Below, one piece after another: positions 6,845-61,209 of a stretch of DNA of 64,000 nucleotides. The notes under the pieces are model-generated. The model made no database searches. It saw only the letters and a list, made by a program, of their open reading frames with translations, and was not told where the DNA came from. The translations under genes were made by a program, and so were the position numbers. The stretch lies in IMG/VR virus record IMGVR_UViG_3300027278_000424. The stretch is one strand, 5' to 3'. The stretch comes from an uncultured virus (IMG/VR IMGVR_UViG_3300027278_000424). Taxonomy: Duplodnaviria > Heunggongvirae > Uroviricota > Caudoviricetes. Positions within the stretch are counted from its first letter, which is position 1; each line of letters starts with the position of its first letter.

Positions 6845-6850
6845 CAAATA

Positions 6851-6935: not shown

Positions 6936-6942
6936 CAATATT

Positions 6943-7016: not shown

Positions 7017-7030
7017 CAAAATAAATTAAT

Positions 7031-7104: not shown

Positions 7105-7110
7105 CTTATT

Positions 7111-7182: not shown

Positions 7183-7191
7183 CAAAATGAC

Positions 7192-7263
7192 TGGTCTATG
7201 GTGTAATTGGCAACACAGCTGGTTTTGGTCCAGTCGTTCTAGGTTCGAGTCCTAGTAGACCAA
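7192..7263 (+). tRNA. tRNA-Gln(TTG)
   Basis: Acceptor TGGTCTA/TAGACCA; loop TTTTGGT. Confidence 0.93.
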
Positions 7264-7275
7264 CTAAACACAGGT

Positions 7276-36013: not shown

Positions 36014-36014
36014 G

Positions 36015-37274: not shown

Positions 37275-37276
37275 TT

Positions 37277-41685: not shown

Positions 41686-42659
41686 ATAAAGTCTTAATTT
41701 GTTTTGGAACAAGACCTGAATGGTTGAAAGTAAAACCTTTAGTTGAGACTTTAGATAACTGTCAACTACTCTTTACCGGTCAACATAAAGACTTACTTGC
41801 TGATATAAAAGTAGACTATAGAATAGAAATAGGAGATCAAACAAATAGACTTGATCAAATCATAAGTGACTGCTTACTTCAATTCCCAGAAGGAGACTTC
41901 GATACAGTCTTAGTTCACGGCGATACAGTTTCAGCTCTTGCTTGTGCTCTAGCAGCATTTAGTAGAAAGAAAAAAATCATTCACCTTGAAGCAGGTTTAA
42001 GATCTCATGATTTGACTCAACCTTACCCGGAAGAAGGGTACAGACAAATGATATCTAGAATAGCAGATATAAACTTTGCTCCAACTGAACTGTCAGCTGA
42101 GAATTTAAAACAAGAAAGAGTTTTAGGAACAACACACATTGTAGGTAATTCAGTTTTAGATAACTTACTGCCATTAAAAGATGAAGCAGTATATGGAGAC
42201 AAAGTTCTAGTCACCTTACATAGATGGGAGAATCATATTTGGATGGATAAATGGTTTAAAGAAGTAAACCAACTAGCGATTGATAACCCTACCTTAGAGT
42301 TTATCATTCCTCTACACCATCATCCCGAAGTACAAAAACATAGAGAATTACTAACACATGTTAATGTAGTTCCGTCTTTACCTCATACTGAACTTTTAGA
42401 TATAATGTTACAATCTAAACTCATCATATCAGATAGCGGAGGACTTCAGGAAGAAGGAACATTCTTTAATAAGAAAGTAATTGTATGTAGAGATGTAACT
42501 GAAAGACCAGAAGGTATAGAAACAGGACATTTACATTTATGTCATTACCCAGAACAGATATCTGATATCTTTTATAAGATTTTAAATAATTACGAAATAG
42601 ATACAAAATGTCCATACGGTGAAGGTAATACAGCCAAACTAGTTAAAGATTTACTATGA
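41673..42659 (+). CDS. wecB: UDP-N-acetylglucosamine 2-epimerase
   Basis: GTRPE, TGQH, HGDT, HLEAGLR, TLHR, DSGGLQEE, TERPEG. Confidence 0.9.
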   Translation: MYMVNKVLICFGTRPEWLKVKPLVETLDNCQLLFTGQHKDLLADIKVDYRIEIGDQTNRLDQIISDCLLQFPEGDFDTVLVHGDTVSALACALAAFSRKKKIIHLEAGLRSHDLTQPYPEEGYRQMISRIADINFAPTELSAENLKQERVLGTTHIVGNSVLDNLLPLKDEAVYGDKVLVTLHRWENHIWMDKWFKEVNQLAIDNPTLEFIIPLHHHPEVQKHRELLTHVNVVPSLPHTELLDIMLQSKLIISDSGGLQEEGTFFNKKVIVCRDVTERPEGIETGHLHLCHYPEQISDIFYKILNNYEIDTKCPYGEGNTAKLVKDLL

Positions 42660-43372
42660 TAACAGTTGTACTAAATAGCTACAAAAGAGCACAATACCTA
42701 CCTGAACAGATAAAAGCCATTAGGGAACAATCTATTCCTGTAGACGAAATAATGGTATGGTCAAACAAACCAGAAGAAGGGTTACAGTACAATATAGATA
42801 ATTTAGGAGTTAAGGTAGCTTATGCAAATCATAATTTCAAGTTTCATGGTAGATTTGCTTTTGGTTTATTAGCTAGAAGCGAGTATGTAGCTTTTTTTGA
42901 TGACGATACAATACCTGGACCTAAATGGTTTGAATCTTGTTTAAAATACTCAGAGGAAAATATTATACTAGGTTCAACAGGAGTTAAGTATTTAGGAGAT
43001 GCTTATGACCCGCATGAAAAGTATGGCTGGAATGGAATAAAAAGTAATAAACTAGAAGATGTTGACTTAGTTGGACATTCATGGTTTATGAAAAGATCTA
43101 CTTTAAAGTACTTATGGGAAGAAGATCCCATCTCTTGGGAGAACGGAGAAGATATTCAACTGTCTGGTTTTGCTTATAAATACGGAAACATAAGAACAGC
43201 AGTACCCCCTCACACTCTAGATAATAGAGAGGAATGGGGAAGTATAAAAGGAGACGTATACGGAAATGATGAAAATGCTTCTCATTGGAAAGGTAATCAT
43301 TCACCGTTACGTAATCAGATTTCTAAAACATTAATGGAACAAGGATACAAAAAAGTAATAGATAGAATATGA
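42656..43372 (+). CDS. GT2-like glycosyltransferase
   Basis: ITVVLNSYKR, FFDDD, GEDI. Confidence 0.8.
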   Translation: MITVVLNSYKRAQYLPEQIKAIREQSIPVDEIMVWSNKPEEGLQYNIDNLGVKVAYANHNFKFHGRFAFGLLARSEYVAFFDDDTIPGPKWFESCLKYSEENIILGSTGVKYLGDAYDPHEKYGWNGIKSNKLEDVDLVGHSWFMKRSTLKYLWEEDPISWENGEDIQLSGFAYKYGNIRTAVPPHTLDNREEWGSIKGDVYGNDENASHWKGNHSPLRNQISKTLMEQGYKKVIDRI

Positions 43373-44217
43373 AAGTACTAGTAACAGGCGGAGCTGGTTT
43401 TATCGGAACAAATATTGTTAATAAACTTCTTAAAGAGGGGCATGAAGTTATGTCTTTAGATAATTACGATAGTGGCCTTAAAGAGAATGAACTACCTGGA
43501 TGTATATACAAAGAAGGAGAGTTAGAGTTCTTAAAGTACTTTAATGGAAACGGATTTGATATAGTTTACCATCTAGCAGCTTTATCTAGAATACAGCCTT
43601 CATTTGAAAATCCATTAGAAACTTTCAGAGTAAATACCGAAGGAAGTTTAATTGTAGCTGATTGGGCTAAAAAGTACAACGTAAAGGTTGTTTATGCCGG
43701 TTCATCTTCAAGATGGCATGATCCATTACAATCACCTTACGCAGCTTTTAAACATATGGGAGAAGAAATCTTTAAAATGTATAGAAAGGTATACGGGTTA
43801 AATGTAGAAATAGCTAGATTCTATAATGTATATGGACCGAAAGAAATAGTAGATGGAGATTGGGCAGCAGTTATAGGAATATGGAGACGTCAAGTTAGAG
43901 ATGGAGAACGTATTACAATAGTAGGTGATGGAGAACAGAGAAGAGACTTTACTCATGTTCACGACATAGTAGACGCTTTATATAAAATTGGTATTGGAAA
44001 AGAATCACACGAAGATGCTTGGGAATTAGGAACAGGAGTCAACTACTCTATCAACGAAGTATTTGATATGTTTAAAAGTAGGTTTAATGTTGAAGCAGTA
44101 TACTTACCAGACCAGAAAGGAAACTATAGAAAGACTTTAAGAGAGAATGATGATAGTTTATTACGTTTAGGTTGGAAACCTGAAGATCAATTACTATCTT
44201 ATATAAACAGCTTATGA
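43369..44217 (+). CDS. NAD-dependent sugar epimerase/dehydratase
   Basis: TGGAGFIG, HLAA, YAAFK, RFYNVYGP, RDFTHV.D. Confidence 0.92.
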   Translation: MKVLVTGGAGFIGTNIVNKLLKEGHEVMSLDNYDSGLKENELPGCIYKEGELEFLKYFNGNGFDIVYHLAALSRIQPSFENPLETFRVNTEGSLIVADWAKKYNVKVVYAGSSSRWHDPLQSPYAAFKHMGEEIFKMYRKVYGLNVEIARFYNVYGPKEIVDGDWAAVIGIWRRQVRDGERITIVGDGEQRRDFTHVHDIVDALYKIGIGKESHEDAWELGTGVNYSINEVFDMFKSRFNVEAVYLPDQKGNYRKTLRENDDSLLRLGWKPEDQLLSYINSL

Positions 44218-44963
44218 AATTAGTAGTATATACAGCCCTATTTGCAGACGAATCTCTACCTTTAGAAGATGTAGGAAGGTTTTTTCCATTCACTCATGAC
44301 AAAGGAGGTGTAGAGTACATAGCGTTTACAAATAGAGAAGACCTAAAATCAGACTTTTGGGATGTAAGAGGTATAGAAAAAGAAGGGGATAAGTCATTTA
44401 GAATGATGTCTAGGTTCTTAAAATGGAACCCAACAAAAGCTAATCTTCCGGAACATACTCATTCATTATGGATGGACTCACAATGTTATTTCCAATACGA
44501 ACCTACAGCTATTGTTGATGGATACTTGAAAGACAAATACCATACAGCTATGCATCATCATACAGACCTACAAAGTATCTATGTAGAAGGAATGGTAACA
44601 TCGTATGTTTACTTTAATGACAAACCTTCTATTGTTAATAGACAATTAGAAAGATACTTCGAAGAAGGGCATCCTTATCAATATGATCATTACGAAACTG
44701 GAATACTTATTAGAAAGAACTGTAAGGAAGCTAATGAACTTGGAGAGACTGTTTATAATGAACTCTCCAACGGAAGTATTAGAGATCAACTATGTACACC
44801 ATATGTAGTTAAAAAGAGGAGAGACAAAGGAGATGAAGGTATACTAACAATACAAGAATCTTTCACAGGACATAGAGGACAGCTACCTCTACCTAAATCA
44901 AAAATATTTTTTACAGAACCAAAACCAAGCGAAAAGCTTAAAGAAGATTTAACAAAGAGATGA
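44214..44963 (+). CDS. DUF616-like glycosyltransferase
   Basis: VVYTAL, SLWMD, ETGILIR, RDQL. Confidence 0.7.
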   Translation: MKLVVYTALFADESLPLEDVGRFFPFTHDKGGVEYIAFTNREDLKSDFWDVRGIEKEGDKSFRMMSRFLKWNPTKANLPEHTHSLWMDSQCYFQYEPTAIVDGYLKDKYHTAMHHHTDLQSIYVEGMVTSYVYFNDKPSIVNRQLERYFEEGHPYQYDHYETGILIRKNCKEANELGETVYNELSNGSIRDQLCTPYVVKKRRDKGDEGILTIQESFTGHRGQLPLPKSKIFFTEPKPSEKLKEDLTKR

Positions 44964-47901: not shown

Positions 47902-48534
47902 TTGCCTAGAGCTCCAAAAATATTAACCAAAGAAGATATACAAAGAGCACAATTAAGAACTCGTTCTAATTTAGCAGCAGCAAGATATCTTCATGTTTCC
48001 TACCCACACTATAGGAAGTATGCTTTGTTATTTAAAAACGAAGACGGAGTTACTTTATTTGAAGCTCATAAAAATCAAGAGGGTAAAGGTATAGCCAAAT
48101 TTAATCCTAACGGAATAAATGAACCTCCTCTATTAGATATCTTAGAAGGTAGAGTACCTTTAGAACATTTTGACTCAAAAAGAATCAAAGAGAGAATAAT
48201 CTTTGAAGCTCTAATAGAAGAGAAATGTGCCCATTGCGGATTCTCAGAGAAGAGAGTACATGATACTAAAGTACCTATCATCTTAAACCATAAGGACGGT
48301 AATAGGAAGAACTGGCTTGTCGAGAATTTAGAATTCTTATGTTACAATTGTGCATTTTTGTACGCTACTTCTCCTATTACCGACAATCAGGTAGATAGAA
48401 TGGAAGATTATGTAGATAAATCTGATGAAGAGTTTACTTGGGAGATGGATGAAGCTACAGTAGAACATCTTAAGAACTTAGGACTGTACGAAGAAGAGAA
48501 GAGACCTGGAGATGAGTACATCTCTAGACTTTAA
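47902..48534 (+). CDS. HNH-like nuclease with N-terminal HTH
   Basis: SNLAAARYLHVSY; CAHCG...LNHKDGN..N...ENLEFLCYNC; TTG start. Confidence 0.75.
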   Translation: MPRAPKILTKEDIQRAQLRTRSNLAAARYLHVSYPHYRKYALLFKNEDGVTLFEAHKNQEGKGIAKFNPNGINEPPLLDILEGRVPLEHFDSKRIKERIIFEALIEEKCAHCGFSEKRVHDTKVPIILNHKDGNRKNWLVENLEFLCYNCAFLYATSPITDNQVDRMEDYVDKSDEEFTWEMDEATVEHLKNLGLYEEEKRPGDEYISRL

Positions 48535-48547
48535 TCTATTTATTATT

Positions 48548-48697
48548 ATGACAAAGAAGAAAACTAGTAAGCTTTCTACCTTTAAAAAGAATAAACCTCT
48601 CGAAAGAAAAGTAGCCGATGACTTAGTAAGGCTACATGAACGTAATGAAAAGTTACGTGAAAAAGAGATAGGAACTTCCTTTTTAGACCTATTTTAG
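48548..48697 (+). CDS. Small basic hypothetical protein (likely start MTKKK)
   Basis: Follows a TATTTAT motif. Confidence 0.5.
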   Translation: MTKKKTSKLSTFKKNKPLERKVADDLVRLHERNEKLREKEIGTSFLDLF

Positions 48698-48748
48698 TTG
48701 GTCGTTATCTTTTTTTTCCTTATCTTTAATTAACTTAAAAAACCTATT

Positions 48749-49312
48749 ATGATGTATAGATATGACAGAGTAACTTTGGAATTTAAAAAAATTAAGTATA
48801 GTGAAATTTTCTTTAAAACTATATTAGCAACTGTAGTTCTATTTACTCTTTTTAGTTTAACCTATAAATTAGATAGAACTAAAATAGATCAACTCACCGA
48901 CGAAGAGAAACTAATAATTATCTCAGACTATAATGAATTTTCGGAAGAAAAACTTGTTGCTAAGATTAAGGAATTGAACTTTAGATACCCACATATTGTA
49001 TTAGCACAAGCAAAACTAGAAACAGGTTACTTTAAATCAGAAAGTTTTACTTACGCTAATAACTTATTTGGTATGAAACAAGCTAAAGCAAGAGCAAATA
49101 CTGCTGTTGGAACTTCAAGAGGTCATGCTCGTTACGATAGTTGGATTGAAAGTCTATATGACTATGCTCTTTTCCATAACGCTTATTTAAATAAGTTAAG
49201 AACTGAAGCACTCTACTACGCCTACTTAGGTCAAAATTATGCTGAAGATCCTAAATATGTCGATAAATTAAAAGCTATAGTAGAAAAACAAGAATTAAAA
49301 AATAAATTCTAA
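48749..49312 (+). CDS. Membrane-anchored glucosaminidase (GH73-like) peptidoglycan hydrolase
   Basis: AQAKLETG, NNLFGMK, YAEDPKY; N-terminal TM segment. Confidence 0.85.
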   Translation: MMYRYDRVTLEFKKIKYSEIFFKTILATVVLFTLFSLTYKLDRTKIDQLTDEEKLIIISDYNEFSEEKLVAKIKELNFRYPHIVLAQAKLETGYFKSESFTYANNLFGMKQAKARANTAVGTSRGHARYDSWIESLYDYALFHNAYLNKLRTEALYYAYLGQNYAEDPKYVDKLKAIVEKQELKNKF

Positions 49313-49318
49313 AAAGTT

Positions 49319-49687
49319 ATGAATTTACTATTTCCAAAGTATAAATTATCAGACAAAGAAATACAAATTAAACATATTATTGAAAACCTAATTAATGACC
49401 CTGTTACTGTTAAGTTAATGGATCCAATTACATCTCATTATTACTTAGATAACAAAAAGTTGGGATACTTTATTCTCATTAGTTACAGTATTATAAAAAT
49501 TACAAATCATAAATTCTACTATACAGAAAATATTAGCAGTAGATTTAGCAGTGAAATTGAAAAATCAATCCAGGTAGCAATAAGTAAAGATAGAAGAAGA
49601 ATTGAAGACGAAATGTTTAAAAACGAATCTGATCTTTTGACAAATATTCTTAAAAAAGTCACAGTTCCTAGTTTGAAATCTGAATAA
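49319..49687 (+). CDS. Hypothetical protein
   Basis: 122-aa ORF. Confidence 0.65.
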   Translation: MNLLFPKYKLSDKEIQIKHIIENLINDPVTVKLMDPITSHYYLDNKKLGYFILISYSIIKITNHKFYYTENISSRFSSEIEKSIQVAISKDRRRIEDEMFKNESDLLTNILKKVTVPSLKSE

Positions 49688-49721
49688 TATTTCTTATCTT
49701 TATGTATATAAAAAATAGGTT

Positions 49722-50039
49722 ATGGCAGAAAAGAGGGGTGAAATTGAGAAAATTATAAATGATTTCAACACAGCTGGTAGTTTAGAGATAAACCATCCTG
49801 TAGTAGGTTGGCATAGAGTTACAGCTAAAGACTTCAGATCATTTGATGGCGAAAGAAGAATTACCGAGCCTGAATATACCAGACTTAGTACGGTTGAAGT
49901 TCCTATGAAGACAGTAGAGTACTTTGGCCCTGTATACTATTGGGGAACTAATAAAGAAGTACGTCCTACTAATTCAGGAAAGATAATTGATAGCCCTATA
50001 CAGGCAAAGTTAAACAGAATCTCAGGAAGTAAAGGTTAA
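49722..50039 (+). CDS. Hypothetical protein
   Basis: After a promoter at 49672-49702. Confidence 0.7.
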   Translation: MAEKRGEIEKIINDFNTAGSLEINHPVVGWHRVTAKDFRSFDGERRITEPEYTRLSTVEVPMKTVEYFGPVYYWGTNKEVRPTNSGKIIDSPIQAKLNRISGSKG

Positions 50040-50043
50040 TATA

Positions 50044-50337
50044 GTGAAGTTACATTTCGAAAATACACACGAGTTTGAAGTCCTATTCAAAAATAAATCA
50101 ATAGAAGTTACAAATGCTATCTACTTAGGTATTGAAAAAGCAATGCAGGATGGTAAAAAGACTGCTATGTTATTTGAGATTACTTTCGAAGAAGCAGAAA
50201 GAGCATTTGAAATATCTCTTCCCCGATCTCAATGGGTACAGGCATTAGAGTCCTGTCTTAAACATTTTCACGAACTTGAAATGTCAAATGAAGCAATAGA
50301 TTGCTGGAAACTATTAGAAGCAGCAAAAGTCTGGTAA
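50044..50337 (+). CDS. Hypothetical protein
   Basis: 97-aa ORF, GTG start. Confidence 0.65.
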   Translation: MKLHFENTHEFEVLFKNKSIEVTNAIYLGIEKAMQDGKKTAMLFEITFEEAERAFEISLPRSQWVQALESCLKHFHELEMSNEAIDCWKLLEAAKVW

Positions 50338-50354
50338 AAATAAAAAGTAAAGTT

Positions 50355-50615
50355 ATGCCAATAAAAAAAGTATCAGTTACAAAGACATCACAGTATTATG
50401 TAGATGGGGAAGGTACAGTAGATAGAGATCGAATAGTTACTCTATCTCATGATTGGACTGAAAGAGACATAACCCTCTTTAAGAAACTAGCCAAACAAGG
50501 CGGTACCTGTAGACTTCAGGGGCTTAAGTATACAATCATACCAGGAGAAAAAATAACAACATCCAAAGGATGGGCGGATGCTGGAGCAGCTCCAATGCCT
50601 GGACCAGAAAATTAA
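50355..50615 (+). CDS. Hypothetical protein (likely start MPIKK)
   Basis: Packed ORF. Confidence 0.6.
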   Translation: MPIKKVSVTKTSQYYVDGEGTVDRDRIVTLSHDWTERDITLFKKLAKQGGTCRLQGLKYTIIPGEKITTSKGWADAGAAPMPGPEN

Positions 50616-50620
50616 TAGTT

Positions 50621-50869
50621 ATGAAAGAACAAGACTTAATTGATCTAGGATTTATAAAGAATGATGTATCAGCAGAAGAATCAGGAGATATTTCATTCTA
50701 CTACTATACTTATGATATTACAGATGAGTTGTGTTTGATATCAAGTGATGATGGAGAGGCTAAAAAAGATGGATGGTCTGTAGAGATGTTTGATTACGAT
50801 GGTATTAAGTTTACTAATGTAGAAGACTTAAAAACTCTTATTGATGTTATAGAAAGGAATAAGTTATGA
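50621..50869 (+). CDS. Hypothetical protein (likely start MKEQD)
   Basis: Packed ORF, ATGA-coupled to the next gene. Confidence 0.65.
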   Translation: MKEQDLIDLGFIKNDVSAEESGDISFYYYTYDITDELCLISSDDGEAKKDGWSVEMFDYDGIKFTNVEDLKTLIDVIERNKL

Positions 50870-51513
50870 AAAATAGGTTCGAACTAAAAGATACCCGAAC
50901 ATTTGGACAAAAGGTAAAATCCTTTCTTCAATCACTTTTATTTTGGAAAGGTAGAAAGAAAGGAATGATTCACACTCGTAATTTAGAGTGGGGTGATTTT
51001 CGTTATATCTTTTTTCCTAAAAAGTTAGAAAAGTTTGGGTATTTAGGAATCACATTCTACAAAGAAGATAGTCCTTACTTTAAAGCAATCTATCCATTAG
51101 TTCTTGCAATGGATTATGAAGCAAAACCAAAATGGTGTCCAAGATGGTTTCTTCGTTTTCTTCATGTCTTCGGTGATGATAAAAGTTTGGTAAGAGTTAG
51201 AAACCATAAGTTGAGTAATCTACATAGAAGATTAACCAAAGGAATTCAGTTCTGGGATTGGAAAACAAAATGGACTGATTATGACCTTCGTATTTCCATA
51301 AGTGGACCAGAACATCTACAAAATCTTGCTGATAATATAGAACGAGGGTATTATAGTAGAGGTAGACAAAAAGAGTTGGTAGAACAGATTAAAAAATTTG
51401 ACCCGAGTGCAGGTATTATTTGGGGTAGTGTTAGTAGGTTAGAAGAACAACTTGAAGAACTAGAAAATAAAGAAGATGAAAGCAATACTAGAATTTCAAC
51501 TCCCGGAAGATAA
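50866..51513 (+). CDS. Hypothetical protein
   Basis: 215-aa ORF. Confidence 0.7.
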   Translation: MKNRFELKDTRTFGQKVKSFLQSLLFWKGRKKGMIHTRNLEWGDFRYIFFPKKLEKFGYLGITFYKEDSPYFKAIYPLVLAMDYEAKPKWCPRWFLRFLHVFGDDKSLVRVRNHKLSNLHRRLTKGIQFWDWKTKWTDYDLRISISGPEHLQNLADNIERGYYSRGRQKELVEQIKKFDPSAGIIWGSVSRLEEQLEELENKEDESNTRISTPGR

Positions 51514-51709
51514 ACAAGATTTTGATTTCGCAACTCAAGGTTCGGATTGGTGGAATGTTTGTTGGGAAATGGACCAATGGCTCAGAGGAGAAATGAAACA
51601 TCCAGCTGGCGATATGAGCGATGATACTTACGAGGCATTACAAAAATGTAGAGAGAAACTAAGAGAACTGATTGACGATAGTAACCTTAATTTAGATAAC
51701 GTATTATGA
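51476..51709 (+). CDS. Hypothetical protein
   Basis: MKAILEFQLPED start, typical of small phage ORFs. Confidence 0.65.
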   Translation: MKAILEFQLPEDKQDFDFATQGSDWWNVCWEMDQWLRGEMKHPAGDMSDDTYEALQKCREKLRELIDDSNLNLDNVL

Positions 51710-52035
51710 GTAAAGTAGAACAAAGAAAGATACTAATTGATATAATGAAAGCAGACGAAGCTTCTGGTCTATATGAAGAGTTAAATTGGAAGCTTGTTAG
51801 AGAAAGAGATGGACTTACTAAAGAATCAGAAAAGGTTCTATGGATTGAATTTAATGAAGATGGTAGATTTAAAGAGAAGTTTGATGAGGTAGCAGTAGGA
51901 AGATCTCTTCTTATGTCTCCATTCAATCAGTTCTTTACATGGCAGACTACTTCTATAACAGAGATAGTAGAGCAGAAAGAGGATTACATTAAATTCAAAA
52001 CACAAAATTCAAACTACGAATTATTTAAGTTATGA
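51706..52035 (+). CDS. Hypothetical protein
   Basis: Contains WQTT and FKTQNSNYEL. Confidence 0.65.
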   Translation: MSKVEQRKILIDIMKADEASGLYEELNWKLVRERDGLTKESEKVLWIEFNEDGRFKEKFDEVAVGRSLLMSPFNQFFTWQTTSITEIVEQKEDYIKFKTQNSNYELFKL

Positions 52036-52445
52036 AAGCATATAAAATGACAAACCGATATGGAGATAAATTTACATTTACTCCTCAAGAAGACGGAACC
52101 ATATTATGGGAAGGTAATTTTGAATATTGTAGATTTGGTTGGCCTAATGACTACACAAAAGCCTTCTTTGAATATACAAGAGATACCGGAGGAGGTATTT
52201 CATTAGAACAGTTTAGAGAATTAGTTCACGCTTATGATGAGGTAAAAGAATCATATGTATTAGAAGACAATAAATATAGAGAACTTGTTACATCTAATAA
52301 AGCTATTATTAATATGGTAGATCCATCTGGCGGACCATACTTAACTTCCGGAATGGCAGTAGAAAGTATATCTAAAGAATTAACTGATATGGAAATAGAG
52401 AGATTTGAATCGGTTAAAGAGGGTTGGAAAATATATTTAAGATAG
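52032..52445 (+). CDS. Hypothetical protein
   Basis: Contains NRYGD and VDPSGGPY. Confidence 0.7.
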   Translation: MKAYKMTNRYGDKFTFTPQEDGTILWEGNFEYCRFGWPNDYTKAFFEYTRDTGGGISLEQFRELVHAYDEVKESYVLEDNKYRELVTSNKAIINMVDPSGGPYLTSGMAVESISKELTDMEIERFESVKEGWKIYLR

Positions 52446-54122: not shown

Positions 54123-54308
54123 TAATACAGGAAAAGATTTTAACCCCTCACCTAGCTACAGAAGTTACTTCCGGAAAACGTTTAGTACTCGTATAATGTT
54201 CTTAAGACAAGAAAACTTACAAATTAAAAGTGGATTAATTTGAATCTTCTTATTAGATTACAAAACATACCTATATTTATATTAAATAAAGCTTTATAAC
54301 TTATAATC

Positions 54309-56513
54309 ATGAAAGGAACCCTTTTTTCAACAGATTTTGTTAAAGACTCTAATGGAAACTTAAGATTGCTTGAAATCAATACAGATACTGCTATTGTTTC
54401 TTCTGCAATCAAACAATTAGACTTTACAGGATTTAAACAAGTATTAGAAAGTAATTCTATTACAAAAGTAAAGACAATCCATAAACTATATCAAGAAGAT
54501 ATCGTAGAAGCATTAAAAGCATACTTAGATGCAAATGTACCTTCAGTAAACTCTTTTGAAAGTATAGTTGAAGATAGCAACACTATTTATCCTACATCTG
54601 TAGAAGATGCAGCAGATACCTTTATCTTAAGGTTAGCTTATGATGAAGCTGCATTATTAGATAGTGAATATGCTAAAAACACACACAATATTCTAAAACT
54701 ATTCAGCGACAATGGGCAAATTAGTTCAACAGTTGGGTATTATTATGCTGGAGGCGGTAGTATAGAAGACCACCTTACAAGAGATTTTAATGCTGAAAAC
54801 GTTCCTGATATTTTAGTTAAAAACTTGAACACTACTTTAGGAGAGCCGATTGAGTTCTTTAAAATAGGTCAATCAAGTAAGACAGCTGAAGATAGATTTG
54901 CTGATGTATTCGATATGTTAGATGATACTAAAATTGCTATGAACTTCTACAACGATGAAGCAGCAGCAAAAGTAGAATCTTTTAGAACATTACACATAGT
55001 ATACGGAAGCGACCTAAACGTTATCGATGTAGCAGGATTTAAATCTTCAGCTATATTAGATAAACCAGCTTCTCTATCAGTAGTAGATGAAGATATAGTA
55101 ACGAAAGTAGATGTAAAGCACTACCATGAATTAACTACTACATTACCTAGATTTGGAGTAGGTTCTAACTACGGAGGTATCTTTGAAGAAGAGTTTATTG
55201 TAAAAGCAGACGGTACGTTAGTACCTATTAAAGACGCTACAGTAGGAGATTCCTTTAAATCATACTTTATTTCAGGTTCACCCGATACAGACATTGAATC
55301 AGAATATCTAGCATGGACTTACCCAGGATCTGAATTACCTAGTGGTTCTTACGCTACAACTTCTACTTTAGTAAACAACTTAGAAGTAGGTTTATTCTAT
55401 AATATGATCTTCCACGTAACTTTACAAGACGGAAGTGATTTTAGAGCAACAGGAAACTCTCACGTATTAGTTTACGATGTACAGGCAGACTTATTAAAGT
55501 ATGTTGCAGTAAACTATCTATCATCAGATAAACATAAATTAATATCTGCAGGAAATGGATTAGTAGATATTACAGGAGTTGTTTGTGAGATATTAGATGG
55601 GGAGTATTCTTCTCATATTCTAGATATGGAAATAGCCGATACATTCTTCATCGGTGATGGACAATTAAGCGTTAAGATTGTTGCCCACAACTGCTTCCCA
55701 GCTGGTACTAAAATTACAATGGCTGATGGTTCAGTCAAAAACATTGAAGACGTTAAGGCAGGAGATAAACTATTAACTATCAACGAAAATACTTTAGAAC
55801 AATCAGAAGGTAGAGTTGGAGATGTATTAGTTAAGAAAGATAGATTGTTATTCGAATTCAAATTAGAAGACGGAGGAGTAATCAAATCTACATCTCATCA
55901 CAGATATTTCGTAAAAGAAAAGTCATGGTTAACTGCTCAAGATATTCAAGTAGGAGACGTATTAGTTAGATCAAACGGAGATGATGTCAAAGTAGAATCA
56001 ATTGAACAGCACGAAGGTGAGTTTGAAGTATTCCATATTATTGATGTAAAAGATAACCATACTTACTACGCAGAAGATATTTTAGTTCATAACTATAAAG
56101 CTTGTTTCATCGCTGGAACAGAGATTACTTTAGCGAATGGAGATGTTAAAAATATCGAAGATGTAGCAGTAGGAGAAGAAGTTCTTACTTACAACGAAGA
56201 TAAAAAAGAAACAGAAGCAGGAGTAGTAGGAGACTTGAAGAAACATGAAGTTCAATCTGTAATCAGATTAACTCTTGATAATGAGAATGTAATCGTAACA
56301 ACTGAAGAACATCCTTTCTATGTAGTAGATGCAGGATGGGTAAAAGCAGGAGAATTACAACCATTAGATGTTTGTTTAAAAGAAGACGGTAAAGAATCTC
56401 TAATCTCTTCAGTAGAGGTATTAGAAGAGAAACATGAAGTATTTAACTTACTAAGCGTTTCTGAAAACCATAACTTCTTCGCTAACGGAATATTAGTTCA
56501 CAATAAAAAATAA
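54309..56513 (+). CDS. Protein with ATP-grasp-like N-terminus and three tandem Hint domains
   Basis: DF.KD..G.LRLLEIN; Hint units end VAHN (aa461), LVHN (aa595), LVHN (aa732); CFPAGT and CFIAGT block A motifs. Confidence 0.85.
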   Translation: MKGTLFSTDFVKDSNGNLRLLEINTDTAIVSSAIKQLDFTGFKQVLESNSITKVKTIHKLYQEDIVEALKAYLDANVPSVNSFESIVEDSNTIYPTSVEDAADTFILRLAYDEAALLDSEYAKNTHNILKLFSDNGQISSTVGYYYAGGGSIEDHLTRDFNAENVPDILVKNLNTTLGEPIEFFKIGQSSKTAEDRFADVFDMLDDTKIAMNFYNDEAAAKVESFRTLHIVYGSDLNVIDVAGFKSSAILDKPASLSVVDEDIVTKVDVKHYHELTTTLPRFGVGSNYGGIFEEEFIVKADGTLVPIKDATVGDSFKSYFISGSPDTDIESEYLAWTYPGSELPSGSYATTSTLVNNLEVGLFYNMIFHVTLQDGSDFRATGNSHVLVYDVQADLLKYVAVNYLSSDKHKLISAGNGLVDITGVVCEILDGEYSSHILDMEIADTFFIGDGQLSVKIVAHNCFPAGTKITMADGSVKNIEDVKAGDKLLTINENTLEQSEGRVGDVLVKKDRLLFEFKLEDGGVIKSTSHHRYFVKEKSWLTAQDIQVGDVLVRSNGDDVKVESIEQHEGEFEVFHIIDVKDNHTYYAEDILVHNYKACFIAGTEITLANGDVKNIEDVAVGEEVLTYNEDKKETEAGVVGDLKKHEVQSVIRLTLDNENVIVTTEEHPFYVVDAGWVKAGELQPLDVCLKEDGKESLISSVEVLEEKHEVFNLLSVSENHNFFANGILVHNKK

Positions 56514-56518
56514 GAATC

Positions 56519-56659
56519 ATGCCAGTAGTATATAAATCATTTGATTACCAAACAGAAGCAAGAGACAAAGCAGTAGAAGCAGCAGATGTAACTACAAAAC
56601 AGCAAATGAATGACATCGTTGCAAGCTTTGTAAATTTATTTAAAGCTAAACACCTATAG
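56519..56659 (+). CDS. Small protein, 46 aa (not in ORF track)
   Basis: MPVVYKSFDYQTEARDKAVEAADV...FKAKHL; fills the gap in the operon. Confidence 0.65.
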   Translation: MPVVYKSFDYQTEARDKAVEAADVTTKQQMNDIVASFVNLFKAKHL

Positions 56660-56673
56660 TATACAGCTTTAAA

Positions 56674-57201
56674 ATGGTTACTGAAAAAACGTTATTCTCA
56701 CAACAAGATTGCGAATACATTAAATCATTTTATGATGTAGCAATTGAGAAGAACGAAAAAGGTTTCAAAATAAACTCAGACAAATACCCACAAGGTATAG
56801 CAATAAAAGACGGTTCAGCAGTATCATGGAATGAAATCCAAAACGATACTCTGGACCGTTTCTTGTTAAGTAAGCTTATAGAGTTAGAAATAACTTCACT
56901 CCCTTATCTTAAGCTAATGAAGTACGGAGTCGGAAATGAAATGAAACCTCATAGAGATTTTCAGGCATATGATACAAGTACAATCTATAGATCAACAACA
57001 ATACAGCTAACCAGTCCGGAAGATTATAAAGGAGGAGAGTTATATGTAGAAGGAGTAAAAGCTAGTAATATACAAGGAACTGCAATTATGTTTAACCCCT
57101 ATCAAACACATTGGGTTACAGAGATTACTGAAGGAGAAAGATGGGTTATAGTAGCTTTTTTAGAAGAGTTTCATTTTAATACTAAGAAAAGTTTATTATG
57201 A
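56674..57201 (+). CDS. 2OG-Fe(II) oxygenase (prolyl hydroxylase-like)
   Basis: HRD, YKGGEL, H.V.EI.EGER. Confidence 0.88.
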   Translation: MVTEKTLFSQQDCEYIKSFYDVAIEKNEKGFKINSDKYPQGIAIKDGSAVSWNEIQNDTLDRFLLSKLIELEITSLPYLKLMKYGVGNEMKPHRDFQAYDTSTIYRSTTIQLTSPEDYKGGELYVEGVKASNIQGTAIMFNPYQTHWVTEITEGERWVIVAFLEEFHFNTKKSLL

Positions 57202-57707
57202 TTGATCAAAAAGTATTATTTACAGCAGAAGAATGTGAGTGGTTGAAATCCGCACAATCAACTATATACCCACCAGTAGAAGATACTAAATGGTGGGAGT
57301 CACATCGTATAAATTATAGATTTAAAAATATACAAGAAAGAGAAGTATTTGAACAGTCACGTTTAGATTTTGTTGCTAGTAGAGTTAAACAATTAGGAGT
57401 GAAATCTGTTCCTACATATAAAATTATACATTACGGTAAAGGTGGATTCTTCGCCCCTCACATAGATTCAGGGAGAAACCATCCAATTAGAAGAAAAACA
57501 TTATTAGTGCAGCTATCCTCTAAAGAAGATTATTCTGGAGGTGATATGTATGTTAAGGGTGTACTTTTTGAAAAGACAATAGGCAATACAATATTATTTG
57601 ATTCGTCATTAACTCATGAACTAAAATTAATAGAAGGAGGAAATAGATTAGTTATGGTCACATGGTTATCTATTTATAACCTTGAGAATCCTAAAACTTT
57701 ACTATGA
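57198..57707 (+). CDS. 2OG-Fe(II) oxygenase
   Basis: HID, YSGGD, HEL..IEGGNR. Confidence 0.88.
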   Translation: MIDQKVLFTAEECEWLKSAQSTIYPPVEDTKWWESHRINYRFKNIQEREVFEQSRLDFVASRVKQLGVKSVPTYKIIHYGKGGFFAPHIDSGRNHPIRRKTLLVQLSSKEDYSGGDMYVKGVLFEKTIGNTILFDSSLTHELKLIEGGNRLVMVTWLSIYNLENPKTLL

Positions 57708-58228
57708 TAACAGTTAAACATAACGTACTGTCGGATAGAGAGGTAAACAAGCTACTCACTTTATGGTATGATACAAAACCTAACCATATTATAACAGACG
57801 GCTATAAGTATAATATTGAAGCAGTAGAGATTTTAGACTACATAGATAAATTAAAACTTTCGTATTCTTTTCCAAAAGAACACTATAGGGACTTTATACT
57901 ACAGACAATAGATGAAACACATAGCAAAGCTCCTAATCATGACAAATATCACCGACATGAAAATGAATGGACATATGTTATGTACTTAAATGATAACTAT
58001 CAAGGAGGAGAAATAGAGTTTACTAATGGAACTATCATTAAACCACAAGTAGGAGATGTTATATACTTTTCACCTGAAGAAGGACATAGAGTTAAACCCC
58101 CATATGATTTTACCGAACAGTATTTTAAACACAACGGTAAGAGTATTCTTATGAATAAAAGATGGTCACTTGTCGGATTCATGAATTCTGACATTATAAA
58201 CGAGAATAAAAAAACATGCTTAATTTAA
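57704..58228 (+). CDS. 2OG-Fe(II) oxygenase (HxH variant)
   Basis: HRH, YLNDNYQGGE, HRV...R. Confidence 0.8.
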   Translation: MITVKHNVLSDREVNKLLTLWYDTKPNHIITDGYKYNIEAVEILDYIDKLKLSYSFPKEHYRDFILQTIDETHSKAPNHDKYHRHENEWTYVMYLNDNYQGGEIEFTNGTIIKPQVGDVIYFSPEEGHRVKPPYDFTEQYFKHNGKSILMNKRWSLVGFMNSDIINENKKTCLI

Positions 58229-58920
58229 TTTATACCTATTCAATCAAACTTAGCGGTAACAGTATAGAAAAATACGTTAAACTCCTAAATAAAGCATACC
58301 TACATAACAGTAAGTACCATTCTATAGTACTATATACCGATAGGGAGACATTACCGTATGTAGAAGATATTTTTCCGGAGATAAGATTAGTAGAAATAGA
58401 CAATCTTCAATTTATGGATGATATAAAAATGAAGATTATAGATAAACTTGAAAGCAATAGTATACTTACAGATTACGATATCTTTTTAAACTCACCTTTA
58501 ATACTTCCAGACAATTTTGATGTGTATGTAGATAGAAGAGGTAAGGTAAAAGAGTTAGTACTGTACAGCCATTTGTTTGAACATTTAAGACATGAAGGTT
58601 ATGGTATTTTTACTAAAGATGTAAATACCTATTTGAATGTAGGTATATTAAAAATCAACAGTGAACATAAAATAAAAGCTATTAAAGACGCATATTACGC
58701 TTTAAGAAATTGGTATGTGGATAATAAAATAGAAGAAAGAACTCAATTTACATACCATACAGGAGTATGCCCTTCTATAGCAGCTTTACAGTACAATTTA
58801 GATAAAATAGCTACTATAAGTAACTGGAAAGTATGTGAGATGAAAAAATACAACAACTACCATCATTTAGTTGGAGAAGATAAATTTAAAGAAATAAGCA
58901 CAAAAAATACTGTGATTTAG
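58216..58920 (+). CDS. Putative nucleotide-diphospho-sugar transferase (DUF6734-like)
   Basis: LYTD, DYD (DxD), NVGIL, YHHLVG. Confidence 0.55.
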   Translation: MLNLIYTYSIKLSGNSIEKYVKLLNKAYLHNSKYHSIVLYTDRETLPYVEDIFPEIRLVEIDNLQFMDDIKMKIIDKLESNSILTDYDIFLNSPLILPDNFDVYVDRRGKVKELVLYSHLFEHLRHEGYGIFTKDVNTYLNVGILKINSEHKIKAIKDAYYALRNWYVDNKIEERTQFTYHTGVCPSIAALQYNLDKIATISNWKVCEMKKYNNYHHLVGEDKFKEISTKNTVI

Positions 58921-58980
58921 TTGTCAAAACAGTATATTTTTCATATATTTAGATATATTAATCTATTAAAGACAAATGTT

Positions 58981-59169
58981 ATGAACAAATTATTTTTTGT
59001 ACCTTCAACCAAAATTAACGCAAGAATTGCCGACACTGTTGTTACAGGACAGCATATTACAGTAGAAGGGTTAACTTACCAAATGGTATCAAAAAGACCA
59101 CTTGGAAGAAGAGTACTAAGACGTCTAATTAACGAATCTACAAATACAAAAATTGTAATCTATTCATAA
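58981..59169 (+). CDS. Hypothetical protein (likely start MNKLFF)
   Basis: After a promoter at 58921-58951. Confidence 0.6.
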   Translation: MNKLFFVPSTKINARIADTVVTGQHITVEGLTYQMVSKRPLGRRVLRRLINESTNTKIVIYS

Positions 59170-59173
59170 CCAA

Positions 59174-59962
59174 ATGAAAGCAATATATAGCTACAAAATA
59201 TTCTCAGACCAACGTAAACCTTTAGATAAAACGTTTTGGAAACTAGCTGCATATAGTGTTAAGTCTGCTTCTAAGTATTATAGAACAGTTCTGTACTCCG
59301 ATGAAGAAAGTGGAAAGCTATTTGATAGACACGGAATTTATTTTGATGAGTATCATATTCTTCCTGAAATAGAAAATTATAAAGGAAGGGTTTATAGTGT
59401 ACCAAAAATATATGCAATGATTGCTGAGAAAGAGCCATATATTCATTTAGACTTTGACTCTGTAATACTGGAAGAGATTATATCTACACACACTATTACA
59501 TACGCATATACAGAAGTTGATTTAATAAATCTAGCAGGGTATGCTAGAATAGATTACGTATTTGGAGGATATGTAAGACCTTATCGAGACTTGTTGGTTG
59601 ATATATTTAAGGATGATATAATATATCCTGATTTTAATATAGTACCTAACCATTCTTTTCTGATGGTAAAAAATCCAACTATTGTTAGAGAGATTTACAA
59701 AAGAATACTCAGTAAAATACCAGCGGACATATTAGAAGAAGTAAGCCCTACATTATTAGAGCAATGTCTACTTTACCTATACTTAAAAGAAAATCAAACA
59801 GATATAGGATACTTAAGTTGGTATTCAGCAGAGAAGTTTTTAGAACGTGAGTTCGGTTCTTATAAATTTATACATTTACCATTTTACAACGAACCGGAAA
59901 AGAAAGAAGAAGTAGAGTTTGTTCTTAAAAAACTTGAAGAACAATTCGGCCCAATCGAATAA
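59174..59962 (+). CDS. Putative nucleotide-diphospho-sugar transferase (DUF6734-like)
   Basis: LYSD, PKIYA, PYIHLDFD, EQ, FIHL. Confidence 0.6.
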   Translation: MKAIYSYKIFSDQRKPLDKTFWKLAAYSVKSASKYYRTVLYSDEESGKLFDRHGIYFDEYHILPEIENYKGRVYSVPKIYAMIAEKEPYIHLDFDSVILEEIISTHTITYAYTEVDLINLAGYARIDYVFGGYVRPYRDLLVDIFKDDIIYPDFNIVPNHSFLMVKNPTIVREIYKRILSKIPADILEEVSPTLLEQCLLYLYLKENQTDIGYLSWYSAEKFLEREFGSYKFIHLPFYNEPEKKEEVEFVLKKLEEQFGPIE

Positions 59963-59977: not shown

Positions 59978-60328
59978 ATGAAAATTAAAGAGCTACTTTT
60001 AGGAGCCGTGTTATTTACTCTCGGACAGAGCATAGCCTGGTACCAGACTAATGGGCAATTTATAAGTAGTTGGATAAAAGAACATCCGTTACTTATGTCG
60101 GCAATAGTTGGAGTACCTGTTGGGATGTGTTATATTTACGGAACAACGTACACAGTAAGTGCTTTTGAAGGAGAATTATGGCCGGCAAGAATTATAGGAT
60201 TTACAACTGGTATATTTTCCTTTACAGTTCTTACTACACTACACTTAAATCAGACAATCGACCTTAAGACAGGTGTCATACTTAGTCTTGCAATTATAAT
60301 TATTTTACTACAAGCTTTTTGGAAATGA
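59978..60328 (+). CDS. Four-TM small membrane protein (SMR/EamA-like)
   Basis: Four hydrophobic helices. Confidence 0.6.
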   Translation: MKIKELLLGAVLFTLGQSIAWYQTNGQFISSWIKEHPLLMSAIVGVPVGMCYIYGTTYTVSAFEGELWPARIIGFTTGIFSFTVLTTLHLNQTIDLKTGVILSLAIIIILLQAFWK

Positions 60329-61209
60329 ATTTTTTAGATAGTCAATATCAAGACCTCCTCAAATACATTATTGAGAAAGGTCAAATAAAAGAAGATAGAA
60401 CCGGAACCGGAACATTATCAGTATTTGGTAGACAATTTAGACATGAGATGTCATTAGGCTTTCCTCTCCTAACAACAAAGAAGATAGCAGTCAAAACTAT
60501 GATGACTGAACTGAAATGGTTTCTAAAAGGAGATACTAATATCAAGTATTTAGTTGATAACGGTTGTAATATTTGGAATGGTGATGCTTATAAGAATTAT
60601 AGAAATAAGTTTGAACCAGCCCCTTATCAATTTACTCCAGATACAATGGAAGAGTTCATCAACAAAATCAAAACCGATGATGAGTTCGCAGAGGAGTGGG
60701 GTGAGTTAGGTCCAATATATGGAAAGCAATGGACTGATTGGAATGGTATAGACCAGATATTAAATCTTCTTAACTCAATAAAGAAGAACCCAAATAGTAG
60801 AAGATTGATGGTATCGGCTTGGAATGTAGGTGAATTACATGAGATGACATTACCTCCTTGTCATTACGGATTCCAGATAAATGTTAGAGGAGAGTATTTA
60901 GACCTAATGTGGAATCAAAGAAGTGTAGATACATTTTTAGGAGTACCTTTTAATATAGCCTCATATGGTCTGCTACTTAGTCTAATAGCGTATGAGACAG
61001 GTTATAAGCCTGGTTCTCTCATAGGATCTCTAGGAGATACACATCTATACACAAACCATATAGAACAGGCGAAGGAACAGATAAAAAGAACTTCATTTGA
61101 TCTTCCTACTCTTAAGATTATTTCATCTGATATTCTAAATGGAGAGTTTGAAGTAGAGTTTGAGAACTATATTTCACATCCTGCAATAAAAGCACCTTTA
61201 TCAAATTAA
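60319..61209 (+). CDS. thyA: Thymidylate synthase
   Basis: DRTGTGT, FPLLTTK, LGPIYG.QW, LPPCH, QRSVD.FLG.PFN, DTHLY. Confidence 0.96.
   Translation: MEMNFLDSQYQDLLKYIIEKGQIKEDRTGTGTLSVFGRQFRHEMSLGFPLLTTKKIAVKTMMTELKWFLKGDTNIKYLVDNGCNIWNGDAYKNYRNKFEPAPYQFTPDTMEEFINKIKTDDEFAEEWGELGPIYGKQWTDWNGIDQILNLLNSIKKNPNSRRLMVSAWNVGELHEMTLPPCHYGFQINVRGEYLDLMWNQRSVDTFLGVPFNIASYGLLLSLIAYETGYKPGSLIGSLGDTHLYTNHIEQAKEQIKRTSFDLPTLKIISSDILNGEFEVEFENYISHPAIKAPLSN

Follow-up and report, generated by a model that had tools for sequence, protein, structure and literature searches.

What might a viral protein do that carries three intein-like Hint modules, and how is it related to the small open reading frame (ORF) and the enzyme genes that stand behind it? 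This question is raised by a locus in the stretch of DNA analysed here (64,000 nucleotides, hereafter the window) from the uncultured virus IMGVR_UViG_3300027278_000424, in which the gene for a 734-residue protein, the head protein, precedes a 46-residue ORF (p46), three genes for putative 2-oxoglutarate (2OG)-Fe(II) oxygenases (ox1, ox2, and ox3), and two genes for glycosyltransferase-like proteins (GT1 and GT2). A preliminary description of the sequence had proposed a system of ligation, hydroxylation, and glycosylation acting on the 46-residue peptide, on fragments released by the Hint modules, or on virion proteins. What we found is a pair of genes, for the head protein and p46, that stay together in each of the 80 related viral loci compared, followed by a variable train of enzyme genes, many of whose products share a C-terminal tail, K-[STKN]-[LI]-[IL]-COOH, across unrelated folds. 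Our reading, which we put forward tentatively and to which we give somewhat less than an even chance, is that the head protein, with p46 as its subunit, is an autoprocessing ATP-grasp/Hint enzyme that would recognise the tails of the train.

A predicted ATP-grasp-type domain heads a family of viral proteins

When the 734-residue protein was compared with Pfam and NCBIfam, only Hint and intein signatures were returned, at residues about 450-732, with none in residues 1-450, and matches to PHROG were likewise limited to the Hint part. The N-terminal part was recognised by its fold. The AlphaFold2 model of the core, built from 114 aligned sequences, reached a predicted local distance difference test score (pLDDT) of 93.2 and a predicted template modelling score (pTM) of 0.88. 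In structural comparisons with VIA, residues 1-279 matched glutathione-synthetase-like proteins, YgiC, GspS, trypanothione synthetase, and Cp1B (Z 9.8-7.6, 188-225 residues aligned), the best rows being 5oeu (Z 9.8, root mean square deviation (rmsd) 4.6, 218 aligned), YgiC (Z 9.2), and GspS (Z 9.1); for the glutathione-synthetase/GspS branch, the rmsd was 3.9-4.8 over 200-225 aligned residues at Z 9.8-8.2. Weaker matches were obtained with LysX/ArgX (ArgX/LysW included), RimK, and TTLL11 (Z 6.6-5.8), and Foldseek paired the N-terminal domain with 2hgs (E 1.7e-5). Because each of the top 44 VIA rows of the core is either a Hint or an ATP-grasp ligase, we accept from the model that residues 1-279 have an ATP-grasp-type fold of the glutathione-synthetase/GspS branch, which bears out the ATP-grasp enzyme named in the preliminary description. 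The named language-model neighbours of the domain, which count as leads only, were also ATP-grasp families (scores 0.86-0.88), and a profile of 39 N-terminal domains gave nothing but chance thioredoxin matches among PDB sequences (E 0.078 or weaker).

Within the domain, D9, E22, N24, T25, R108, D118, K171, and R226 are conserved in 109-114 of the 114 rows. The offsets of D9, E22, and N24 presumably fit the Mg-binding Asp and Glu-x-Asn of GspS and human glutathione synthetase, as we take their residue numbers to be, and we assume that the E-x-N strand near the N-terminus resembles that of the permuted eukaryotic enzymes. Compared with the glutathione synthetase, GspS, YgiC/YjfC, and Cp1B branch, whose fold it resembles, the head domain is small (about 280 residues as against 370-600), has no similarity at the sequence level, is fused to Hint modules, and carries, or requires, a separate subunit of 46 residues.

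A HMMER search with residues 1-290 of the head protein (E<=0.001) gave a family of 244 representative proteins (clusters at 50% identity), in which the domain stands at the protein's own N-terminus in 144 of the 150 members listed and lengths cluster near 450-500, 600-650, 740-790, and 900 residues. When 28 members were scanned with Pfam, 13 had Hint-family matches, and one (P0123), which had a class II tRNA-synthetase fragment and a piece of the N-terminal domain, was treated as a chimera; the remaining 14 had no Pfam match and were mostly shorter forms of 432-531 residues, so that residues 1-461 can be taken as the conserved core. The family is viral only, and large uncultured phages commonly have it. 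In IMG/VR, a relative of the head protein is encoded in at least 107 viral contig stretches, on contigs of up to 326 kb; a profile-guided scan confirmed 107 loci, of which the best 80 were kept, and these fell into 50 groups at 90% identity (the 80 and the 50 loci counted below). Among the genomes of 185,579 species, the sole match was a 2.8-kb contig (L110) in a metagenome-assembled genome of Cyanobium, which probably represents phage DNA that was binned with that of a picocyanobacterium; it gives a weak hint of the hosts of some relatives. In isolate phages, the 734-residue protein matched 51 records, and all 30 of the rows listed covered residues 387-732 only, leaving residues 1-386 unmatched among the matches listed; at the nucleotide level, the region had no match in isolate phages.

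Three Hint modules predicted to cleave rather than splice

In inteins, Cys at position 1 forms a thioester, the terminal His-Asn makes the C-terminal cut, and splicing requires a nucleophile at position +1 behind it. All three Hint units counted in the preliminary description were recovered in the head protein, two by Pfam/NCBIfam (PT-HINT at 101.9 bits for Hint3, Intein_splicing at 75.3, and Hint at 49.5) and the first by fold only. Hint1 is most similar to Tetrahymena BIL2 (VIA Z 18.3, rmsd 1.9, 142 aligned) and to a Clostridium thermocellum BIL domain (Z 18.2), and Foldseek gave E 5.9e-9 for residues 285-461. None of the three modules has the complete intein set of a position-1 nucleophile, a terminal Asn, and Cys, Ser, or Thr at +1; all have the features of Hint/BIL autoprocessing domains, Hint2 and Hint3 with the full Cys1 and TxxH set and Hint1 with the C-terminal set only.

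Across the 114 aligned sequences Hint1 was never lost. Its N461 is present in all 114 rows, H460 in 110, and the acidic block F residues E441 and D444 in 109 and 110, respectively, but just 9 rows have the block-B His. With the position-1 nucleophile missing and the block-B His mostly gone, Hint1 appears to be left with Asn cyclisation (C-terminal cleavage) only, the C-terminal half of the intein machinery. The +1 residue is Tyr for Hint2 and Lys for Hint3, which leaves both without a nucleophile there; they are predicted to form an N-terminal thioester and to cut at their C-terminus, which would lead to cleavage or transfer and never to splicing. In a noisy regular-expression count over 50 relatives, the residue behind His-Asn was mostly K, F, R, or A, and was Cys in just 10 cases, each being the direct start of the next Hint; relatives of the head protein usually end in His-Asn-Lys. 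By a rough motif count, 50 dereplicated viral proteins have one (19 proteins), two (24), or three (5) canonical Hints, with 2 unparsed.

Hint2 and Hint3 share 39.6% identity. Compared with their counterparts in a relative with an 80% identical core, they are 96% and 93% identical, respectively, which indicates strong constraint and not decay, and we rejected the possibility that they are decaying selfish inteins as they are conserved above the level of the core. That every Hint has the invariant His-Asn and at least one residue behind it points to a role for Asn cyclisation as such.

The best structural matches of Hint1, the BIL domains and the "ubiquitin-dispensing" BIL2 domain of Tetrahymena BUBL (PDB 6TMM/6Y75 and 2LWY), share with the phage protein processing without splicing and tandem Hint units in one polypeptide. 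BIL2 is described (PMC8616854) as transferring its N-terminal neighbour to lysine through a thioester, giving Lys-isopeptide conjugates without ATP. Unlike BIL2, Hint1 has neither Cys1 nor the block-B His and is not flanked by ubiquitin-like domains; further, the phage Hints are fused to an ATP-grasp domain, have only Lys-Lys behind the last His-Asn, and occur in a virus.

Some members of the family have other C-terminal ends. In a group of distant members (P0112, P0114, P0116, P0119, P0126, P0129, P0131, P0132, P0134-P0136, and P0147), C-terminal Cys-rich stretches of about 30-45 residues replace the Hint modules and, in the three that were aligned, follow the His-Asn of the core; they may be releasable peptide cargo. 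Others (P0003, P0009-P0011, P0016, P0018, P0021, P0036, P0038, and P0057) have a conserved end ..SGLGDN..LN.KY.RQ.. in place of ..VHNK, and P0021 matches Pfam Vint. A second, weaker match to the Hint1 region was seen inside other ORFs of about 580 residues in two genomes (G001, 117757-118200; G002, 149913-150347).

A small protein follows the head gene in all related loci

The unannotated 46-residue ORF noted in the preliminary description is a true gene, since a homologue stands right behind the head gene in 80 of 80 related loci (78 in a first pass, to which L029 and L058 were then added), always as an ORF of 43-53 residues that starts within about 100 nucleotides of the Hint stop. The 80 loci hold 50 distinct p46 sequences with the consensus ..[VIL]YK.. 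/ ..NR.. / ..NF[IF]xYFKAKH[LS], in which Tyr5 is invariant and Lys6 and His45 are present in at least 90% of rows; the ends are conserved and the middle is more variable. The C-terminal residue varies (L, S, M, or T), and some sequences run on for extra residues.

When the core was modelled together with ATP and p46, the interaction prediction score from aligned errors (ipSAE) was 0.86, 0.83, and 0.82, compared with 0.00 in all three controls, with a pLDDT of at least 90 for the partner and a contact agreement of at least 97%. In calibration, 116 of 157 solved complexes and 2 of 215 mismatched pairs attained the ipSAE mark used; unlike the p46 run, the calibration set included neither a riding ligand nor custom alignments. 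In the model, p46 residues 1-11, 13-22, and 26-46 touch the core through 130 contacts: residues 3-8 pair with the Hint1 strand 424-431, and the C-terminal helix lies on a hydrophobic face of the ATP-grasp domain formed by F10, L18, L20, I23, L116, L117, L131, and F132. This pose, over nearly the whole length of p46, argues against a free precursor peptide, and p46 is more probably a small subunit, clamping the ATP-grasp domain to Hint1 as modelled, than the precursor of a ribosomally synthesized and post-translationally modified peptide (RiPP).

The role of a modified peptide, which the preliminary description had considered for the 46-residue product, is thus weakened by its predicted wrap around the core. 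The fuller form of that idea is a RiPP-like pathway, in which p46 would be a precursor tailored by the ATP-grasp domain and the neighbouring enzymes and the Hints would act as built-in proteases or scaffold. The strict linkage of p46 to the head gene would agree with such a pathway, as would the neighbouring genes, which belong to classes of peptide-tailoring enzymes (oxygenase, SET, radical-SAM, and methyltransferase), the invariant Tyr5 with the well-conserved Lys6 and His45 beside a more variable middle, and the Cys-rich peptides behind His-Asn in some distant family members. Leader peptides dock on recognition domains by β-augmentation, and the N-terminal strand of p46 docks in this manner in the model. 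Graspetides and microviridins likewise have a small ORF beside an ATP-grasp enzyme, with oxygenase, methyltransferase, and radical-SAM neighbours, but they belong to another ATP-grasp branch; p46 shows no clear leader/core pattern and is predicted to be a structural partner, and the tailoring enzymes here share a tail. Conservation at both ends of p46, together with a helix predicted to cover a hydrophobic sheet face, is that of a subunit and not of a threaded substrate; neither a leader/core split with a hypervariable core nor genes for export or peptidases were seen, and the shared tails would be left unexplained. We consider a RiPP-like pathway unlikely.

Enzymes of unrelated folds behind the gene pair share a C-terminal tail

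The genes that follow p46 vary from locus to locus. In the 50 dereplicated loci, the first ORF of at least 90 residues that comes after the head gene, and thus after p46, encodes a 2OG oxygenase in 20, a SET protein in 16, and another product in 14; 46 of these loci have a 2OG oxygenase within 6 kb, and SET and radical-SAM enzymes occur in 23 and 20. Counted with phmmer over the 80 loci, matches numbered 64 for ox1, 71 for ox2, 40 for ox3, 8 for GT1, 15 for the small protein p82, 11 for the hydrophobic protein mem116, and 2 for GT2, both of the latter being identical copies. The relative with an 80% identical core has the head gene, p46, ox1, ox2, and p82, and lacks ox3, GT1, GT2, and mem116. 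The fixed unit is therefore the head gene with p46, and the enzyme train varies. Conservation of the neighbourhood, proposed earlier as a check on the locus, thus held for the head gene with p46 and for a nearby oxygenase and failed for the other enzymes, and a fixed pathway of ligation, hydroxylation, and glycosylation is hard to maintain when ox3, GT1, and GT2 are gone from that relative and GT2 recurs only in near-identical copies.

The cross-fold tail K-[STKN]-[LI]-[IL]-COOH is a new observation that goes beyond the preliminary description. It is seen on ox1, ox2, ox3, and GT1 (window 56674-58920), in loci L008-L085, and at 48285-52254 of G002 (L089). Its carriers include 49 of 101 2OG oxygenases, 15 of 28 SET proteins, 15 of 24 radical-SAM enzymes, 18 of 20 GT1-like proteins, 5 of 9 methyltransferases, and members of two further families, c6 (13/20) and c5 (9/21), and it is absent from the head protein (0/50), p46 (0/40), carbamoyltransferase (0/14), PhoH (0/9), p82 (0/11), and mem116 (0/10). 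Of 262 C-termini, 147 have Lys at position -4, 190 have Leu or Ile at -2, and 210 have one of these two at -1. In the model of GT1 the tail (residues 228-234) is disordered, with a pLDDT below 50.

The tail is concentrated immediately behind the head gene. With a loose pattern and ORFs of at least 90 residues, it was found at position +1 in 38 of 50 loci (76%), at +2 to +6 in 42-62%, at -1 in 22 of 50, and at -2 to -6 in 8-28%, compared with about 5% of the ORFs of whole contigs (7/155, 20/329, and 14/251). In the window, 6 of 110 ORFs have the loose tail, four of them being the consecutive genes behind p46. In a complete relative of 245 kb, six consecutive tail-ended genes stand straight behind the head gene and the p46 slot, and three of the four strict tails of the genome fall in that run. 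The tail is encoded by varied codons and followed by any of the three stop codons, and 46 of 188 tail genes lie more than 30 nucleotides from the next ORF, so that the tail can be taken to act at the protein level; a signal at the DNA level is weakened by the same points, if not fully excluded. We also used GT1-like proteins as bait, and the head gene was again present in 14 of 18 loci. Three of the others (L119, L121, and L125) have no clear head gene, with the match near a contig end in all three, and the divergent GT1-like copy in L130 has neither a tail nor a head gene within 10 kb, which fits a link between head and tail.

These counts also bear on the possibility that the locus is a loose accessory cluster in a hyperplastic region, whose enzymes have host or virion targets of their own, without involvement of the head protein, and in which the tail would be a custom of the lineage or would result from overlapping genes. 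The variable train speaks for this, both in the four genes that the close relative lacks and in the changing gene behind p46, as do the 2OG clusters that cyanophage isolates have without a head gene and the overlap with the next ORF in 85 of 188 tail genes. A lineage habit or an overlap by-product is harder to reconcile with a tail that is common to unrelated folds, reaches 76% at +1 against a background of about 5%, and is written in varied codons, in some tail genes with a gap of more than 30 nucleotides to the next ORF; further, none of the four annotated 2OG/dioxygenase genes read in one region of a cyanophage isolate has the tail, and the GT1-like bait led back to the head gene, with the tail-less L130 in line. 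To us, a loose cluster is an improbable explanation of the locus.

A possible mechanism and its weak points

The favoured reading, in which the head protein and p46 serve the tail-bearing enzymes, can be put as follows. What was found are the tail, the folds, the linkage of the genes, and the anatomy of the locus; the link between head and tail and all of its chemistry we infer from these. The head gene would encode an autoprocessing enzyme made of a minimal carboxylate-amine ligase of ATP-grasp fold, the BIL-type Hint1, and two complete mini-Hints, with p46 clamping the ATP-grasp domain to Hint1. The train behind it would consist here of three prolyl-hydroxylase-like 2OG oxygenases and a GT-A-fold transferase, and elsewhere also of SET, radical-SAM, and methyltransferase enzymes, whose flexible tails would be recognised by the head complex; to this recognition step alone we give a chance only just short of even.

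Glutathione synthetase and GspS activate a carboxylate, often that of a peptide C-terminus, for attack by an amine. Because this branch acts on such carboxylates, ATP-dependent chemistry at the tail is our first choice by analogy: an amide might be formed at the terminal carboxylate, as capping, ligation, or cyclisation of the Lys to the C-terminus, which we regard as possible but doubtful. The second choice, more doubtful still, is that the tail lysine might be captured by a Hint-made thioester in the manner of BIL2. Both chemistries would leave the phage with enzymes that it has itself tagged, capped, or tethered. In its most complete form this would be a ubiquitin-free conjugation or capping system, in which a two-subunit enzyme reads a K-x-L-I-COOH tag and ligates or cyclises C-termini or captures Lys, an outcome that we would entertain with considerable doubt.

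The use of a small protein or of a protein C-terminus as an ATP-grasp substrate is known from LysX/ArgX-LysW, RimK-S6, and tubulin tyrosine ligase, to which the structural likeness is weak. Unlike the carriers of the LysW type, p46 has no conserved last residue and is modelled as a clamp, and the candidate tags are hydrophobic K-x-L-I tails on many enzymes and not acidic tails. The parts of the system are thus known (ATP-grasp, BIL/Hint, 2OG oxygenases, and the GT-A fold), and the combination is new to the literature searched, which yielded no publication on an ATP-grasp and Hint phage architecture and none pairing a bacterial intein-like element with glutathionylspermidine.

Several observations weigh against this mechanism. 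First, the ATP-grasp assignment is one of fold only, as the Pfam, NCBIfam, and PDB-profile searches gave no match, and the equivalence of D9, E22, and N24 to Mg ligands is judged from alignment offsets and from assumed residue numbers. Second, a Fisher test for the tail is circular, because the tail families were chosen after the tail was seen, which makes the position profile and the whole-genome counts the fairer tests. Third, in the complete relative G004, none of three strict tails is near the head gene, so that the local signal is weak there, and the neighbouring oxygenase ends HNLSLI, with the Lys missing; GT2 likewise has no tail. Fourth, ATGA overlaps favour last codons ending in A (ATA and TTA), and this codon bias may account for part of the make-up of the tail. 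Fifth, about 6.5 kb downstream of the module, just past the window, stand a tail-bearing GNAT-like acetyltransferase (SPKSIL; L111:1615-2142) and a 2OG oxygenase (KDSTLI; L111:2142-2660; together G000 66614-67662), so that the tail is also found on another enzyme class and outside the operon. Finally, Hint modules and tail genes are not correlated in number (rho -0.16, p 0.26), by which a scheme of one Hint module per tail gene is rejected.

Instead of acting on the tails, the head protein might be a small-molecule ligase whose product, a metabolite akin to glutathione, a polyamine, or a peptide, serves in host takeover, with its Hints as domesticated or selfish intein relics that cut themselves off. 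Its best non-Hint structural neighbours are indeed glutathione synthetase, GspS, trypanothione synthetase, and Cp1B, the number of Hints ranges from 0 to 3 across the family, and 9 of 125 comparisons showed a Hint3-like module whose similarity exceeded that of the core by over 15 points, which suggests occasional exchange; Cp1B is described as the E-64 ligase, a small-molecule ligase (PMC12568646). We hold this reading to be very unlikely in view of a Hint1 that is never lost and keeps its His-Asn almost universally, of Hint2 and Hint3 that are conserved above the core, and of a dedicated small subunit predicted to bridge ligase and Hint1, and as it leaves the tails and the fixed gene order unexplained.

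If the head pair does act on the tails, it would represent a new enzyme-tagging mechanism by which an enzyme toolkit could be assembled, stabilised, or packaged without ubiquitin, could provide self-cleaving and ligating protein tools, and would offer a clue to the many 2OG oxygenases of marine phages. The gains in annotation do not depend on a link between head and tail: a universally linked 46-residue subunit, a Hint domain apparently confined to Asn cyclisation, and a C-terminal tag that crosses folds.

Features of the locus and the downstream enzymes

The coordinates of the locus are collected in Table 1.

Table 1. Features of the head-protein locus (positions in the window)
Feature	Position	Strand	Remarks
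AT-rich upstream motif TATTTATATTAAATAAAG...	54274..54298	+	start codon 27 nucleotides further; candidate phage promoter element
Head protein (Hint ORF), 734 residues	54309-56513	+	ATP-grasp-like domain + Hint1 + Hint2 + Hint3
ATP-grasp-like ligase domain, residues 1-279	54309..55145	+	fold match, AlphaFold2 model
Hint1, residues 285-461	55161..55691	+	BIL-like; without position-1 nucleophile; invariant terminal His-Asn
Hint2, residues 462-595	55692..56093	+	Cys1, TSHH, terminal HN, then Tyr; Pfam Hint/PT-HINT/Intein_splicing
Hint3, residues 599-732	56103..56504	+	Cys1, TEEH, terminal HN, then Lys-Lys-stop; TIGR01445, TIGR01443
p46, 46 residues	56519-56659	+	starts 5 nucleotides past the Hint stop
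ox1, putative 2OG-Fe(II) oxygenase PF13640	56674..57201	+	HRD...H; tail KKSLL
ox2, putative 2OG-Fe(II) oxygenase	57198..57707	+	HID...H; tail PKTLL; ATGA-coupled to ox1
ox3, putative 2OG-Fe(II) oxygenase, H-x-H/D subgroup	57704..58228	+	HRH; tail KKTCLI; ATGA-coupled to ox2
GT1, GT-A-fold transferase-like	58216..58920	+	invariant D-x-D; tail KNTVI
p82, small conserved protein	58981..59169	+	probable real start ATG 58981, giving 62 residues
GT2, DUF6734-family	59174..59962	+	invariant HLDFD motif; no tail
mem116, 116-residue hydrophobic protein	59978..60328	+	11/80 loci; no family match

The three oxygenases of the preliminary description all match PF13640 (39.5, 39.4, and 35.3 bits, compared with a Pfam cut-off of 27), and the ATGA coupling that it reported is present at the ox1/ox2 and ox2/ox3 junctions; p46 and ox1 are separated by 14 nucleotides, and ox3 and GT1 overlap by 13. 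The distal His of the triad is invariant, the 2OG-binding Arg is present in at least 90% of rows, and ox1 and ox2 follow HxD...H...R. The oxygenase with HxH in place of HxD is ox3, which reads HRH and has subgroup relatives with HAH, HNH, and HQD, making it a putative 2OG-Fe(II) oxygenase with a variant triad. The isolate phages that best match ox1 are Synechococcus myoviruses.

The D-x-D protein described earlier as glycosyltransferase-like, GT1, has a GT-A fold in its model (pLDDT 87.3), with D86 and D88 invariant in 27 sequences (D-G/Y-D). VIA matched it to YeGT (Z 11.2, rmsd 3.5, 179 aligned), LgtC (Z 11.0), glycogenin (Z 10.9), and other retaining GT-A enzymes including LtpM and LARGE1 (Z 11.2-10), and Foldseek to GT6 enzymes (E 8.5e-6). 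Nucleotidyltransferases of the same fold also score Z 9-10 against it, and sugar transfer by GT1 is thus likely at most from the model. GT2, previously read as a second paralogue, is distantly homologous to GT1 (hhalign probability 95.6%, E 1.1e-8). It scores 25.7 bits against PF20508 (DUF6734), for which the cut-off is 27; 8 of 9 GT2 relatives have PF20508 in precomputed annotation, its Atlas neighbours are DUF6734 clusters (score 0.98), and GT2 is thus judged by its relatives to be a putative DUF6734 member. Compared with the retaining GT-A enzymes (GT6, GT8, glycogenin, and LgtC), with which GT1 is grouped by fold and D-x-D and GT2 by relatives, neither protein matches a Pfam glycosyltransferase family, and their profiles gave only chance matches among PDB sequences. 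The literature search found no publication mentioning DUF6734. The 62-residue form of p82 is 89% identical in L005 and recurs in 15 of 80 loci.

Upstream motif and promoters

The motif at 54274 to which the preliminary description had drawn attention reads TATTTATA at 54274-54281. This word is not enriched in the window, with 18 matches compared with 14.08 expected and 22 of 100 shuffles reaching 18. Its copies favour the + (coding) strand (14/18) and are mostly intergenic, and a longer word, TATTTATATTAAATAAG, is common to two intergenic regions (window 4470-4494 and 54274-54298), making the TATTTATA/TATTTATATTAAATAAG element a plausible candidate for a phage promoter element. We take TATTTATA to be the reverse complement of the T4 late promoter word; a T4 late promoter was rejected, with only 4 of 18 copies in the T4 orientation. 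A promoter of its own had also been proposed for GT2, and this is unsupported, as a general promoter scan gave 41 sites compared with 45.4 expected from shuffles.

Genome setting

The window is part of a viral contig of 94.8 kb with an estimated completeness of 58%; its genes lie almost all on the + strand, and its G+C content is about 0.30-0.39. It encodes seven tRNAs, a family-A DNA polymerase, GroEL, a baseplate wedge protein, and many sugar and glycosyltransferase genes. From the tRNAs, the polymerase, GroEL, and the baseplate wedge gene, we conclude that the source is a large tailed phage, probably a myovirus.

The seven tRNAs (Thr, Leu, Ser, Asp, Ala, Glu, and Gln) form a cluster at 6681-7264, and the phage GroEL is encoded at 22281-23927 (phrog_5725, E 8e-165). 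Genes for glycosyltransferases, UDP-glucose dehydrogenase, epimerase, and carbamoyltransferase are abundant at 34565-44963, 415-1917, and 8342-9997, and a carbamoyltransferase recurs near the head gene in 14 of 50 related loci. Further, the thymidylate-synthase homologue at 60319-61209 is 62% identical to its counterpart in L005 (7686-8675; 296 and 329 residues, respectively), whereas the genes that flank it are 85-95% identical between the same two phages, which suggests gene replacement.

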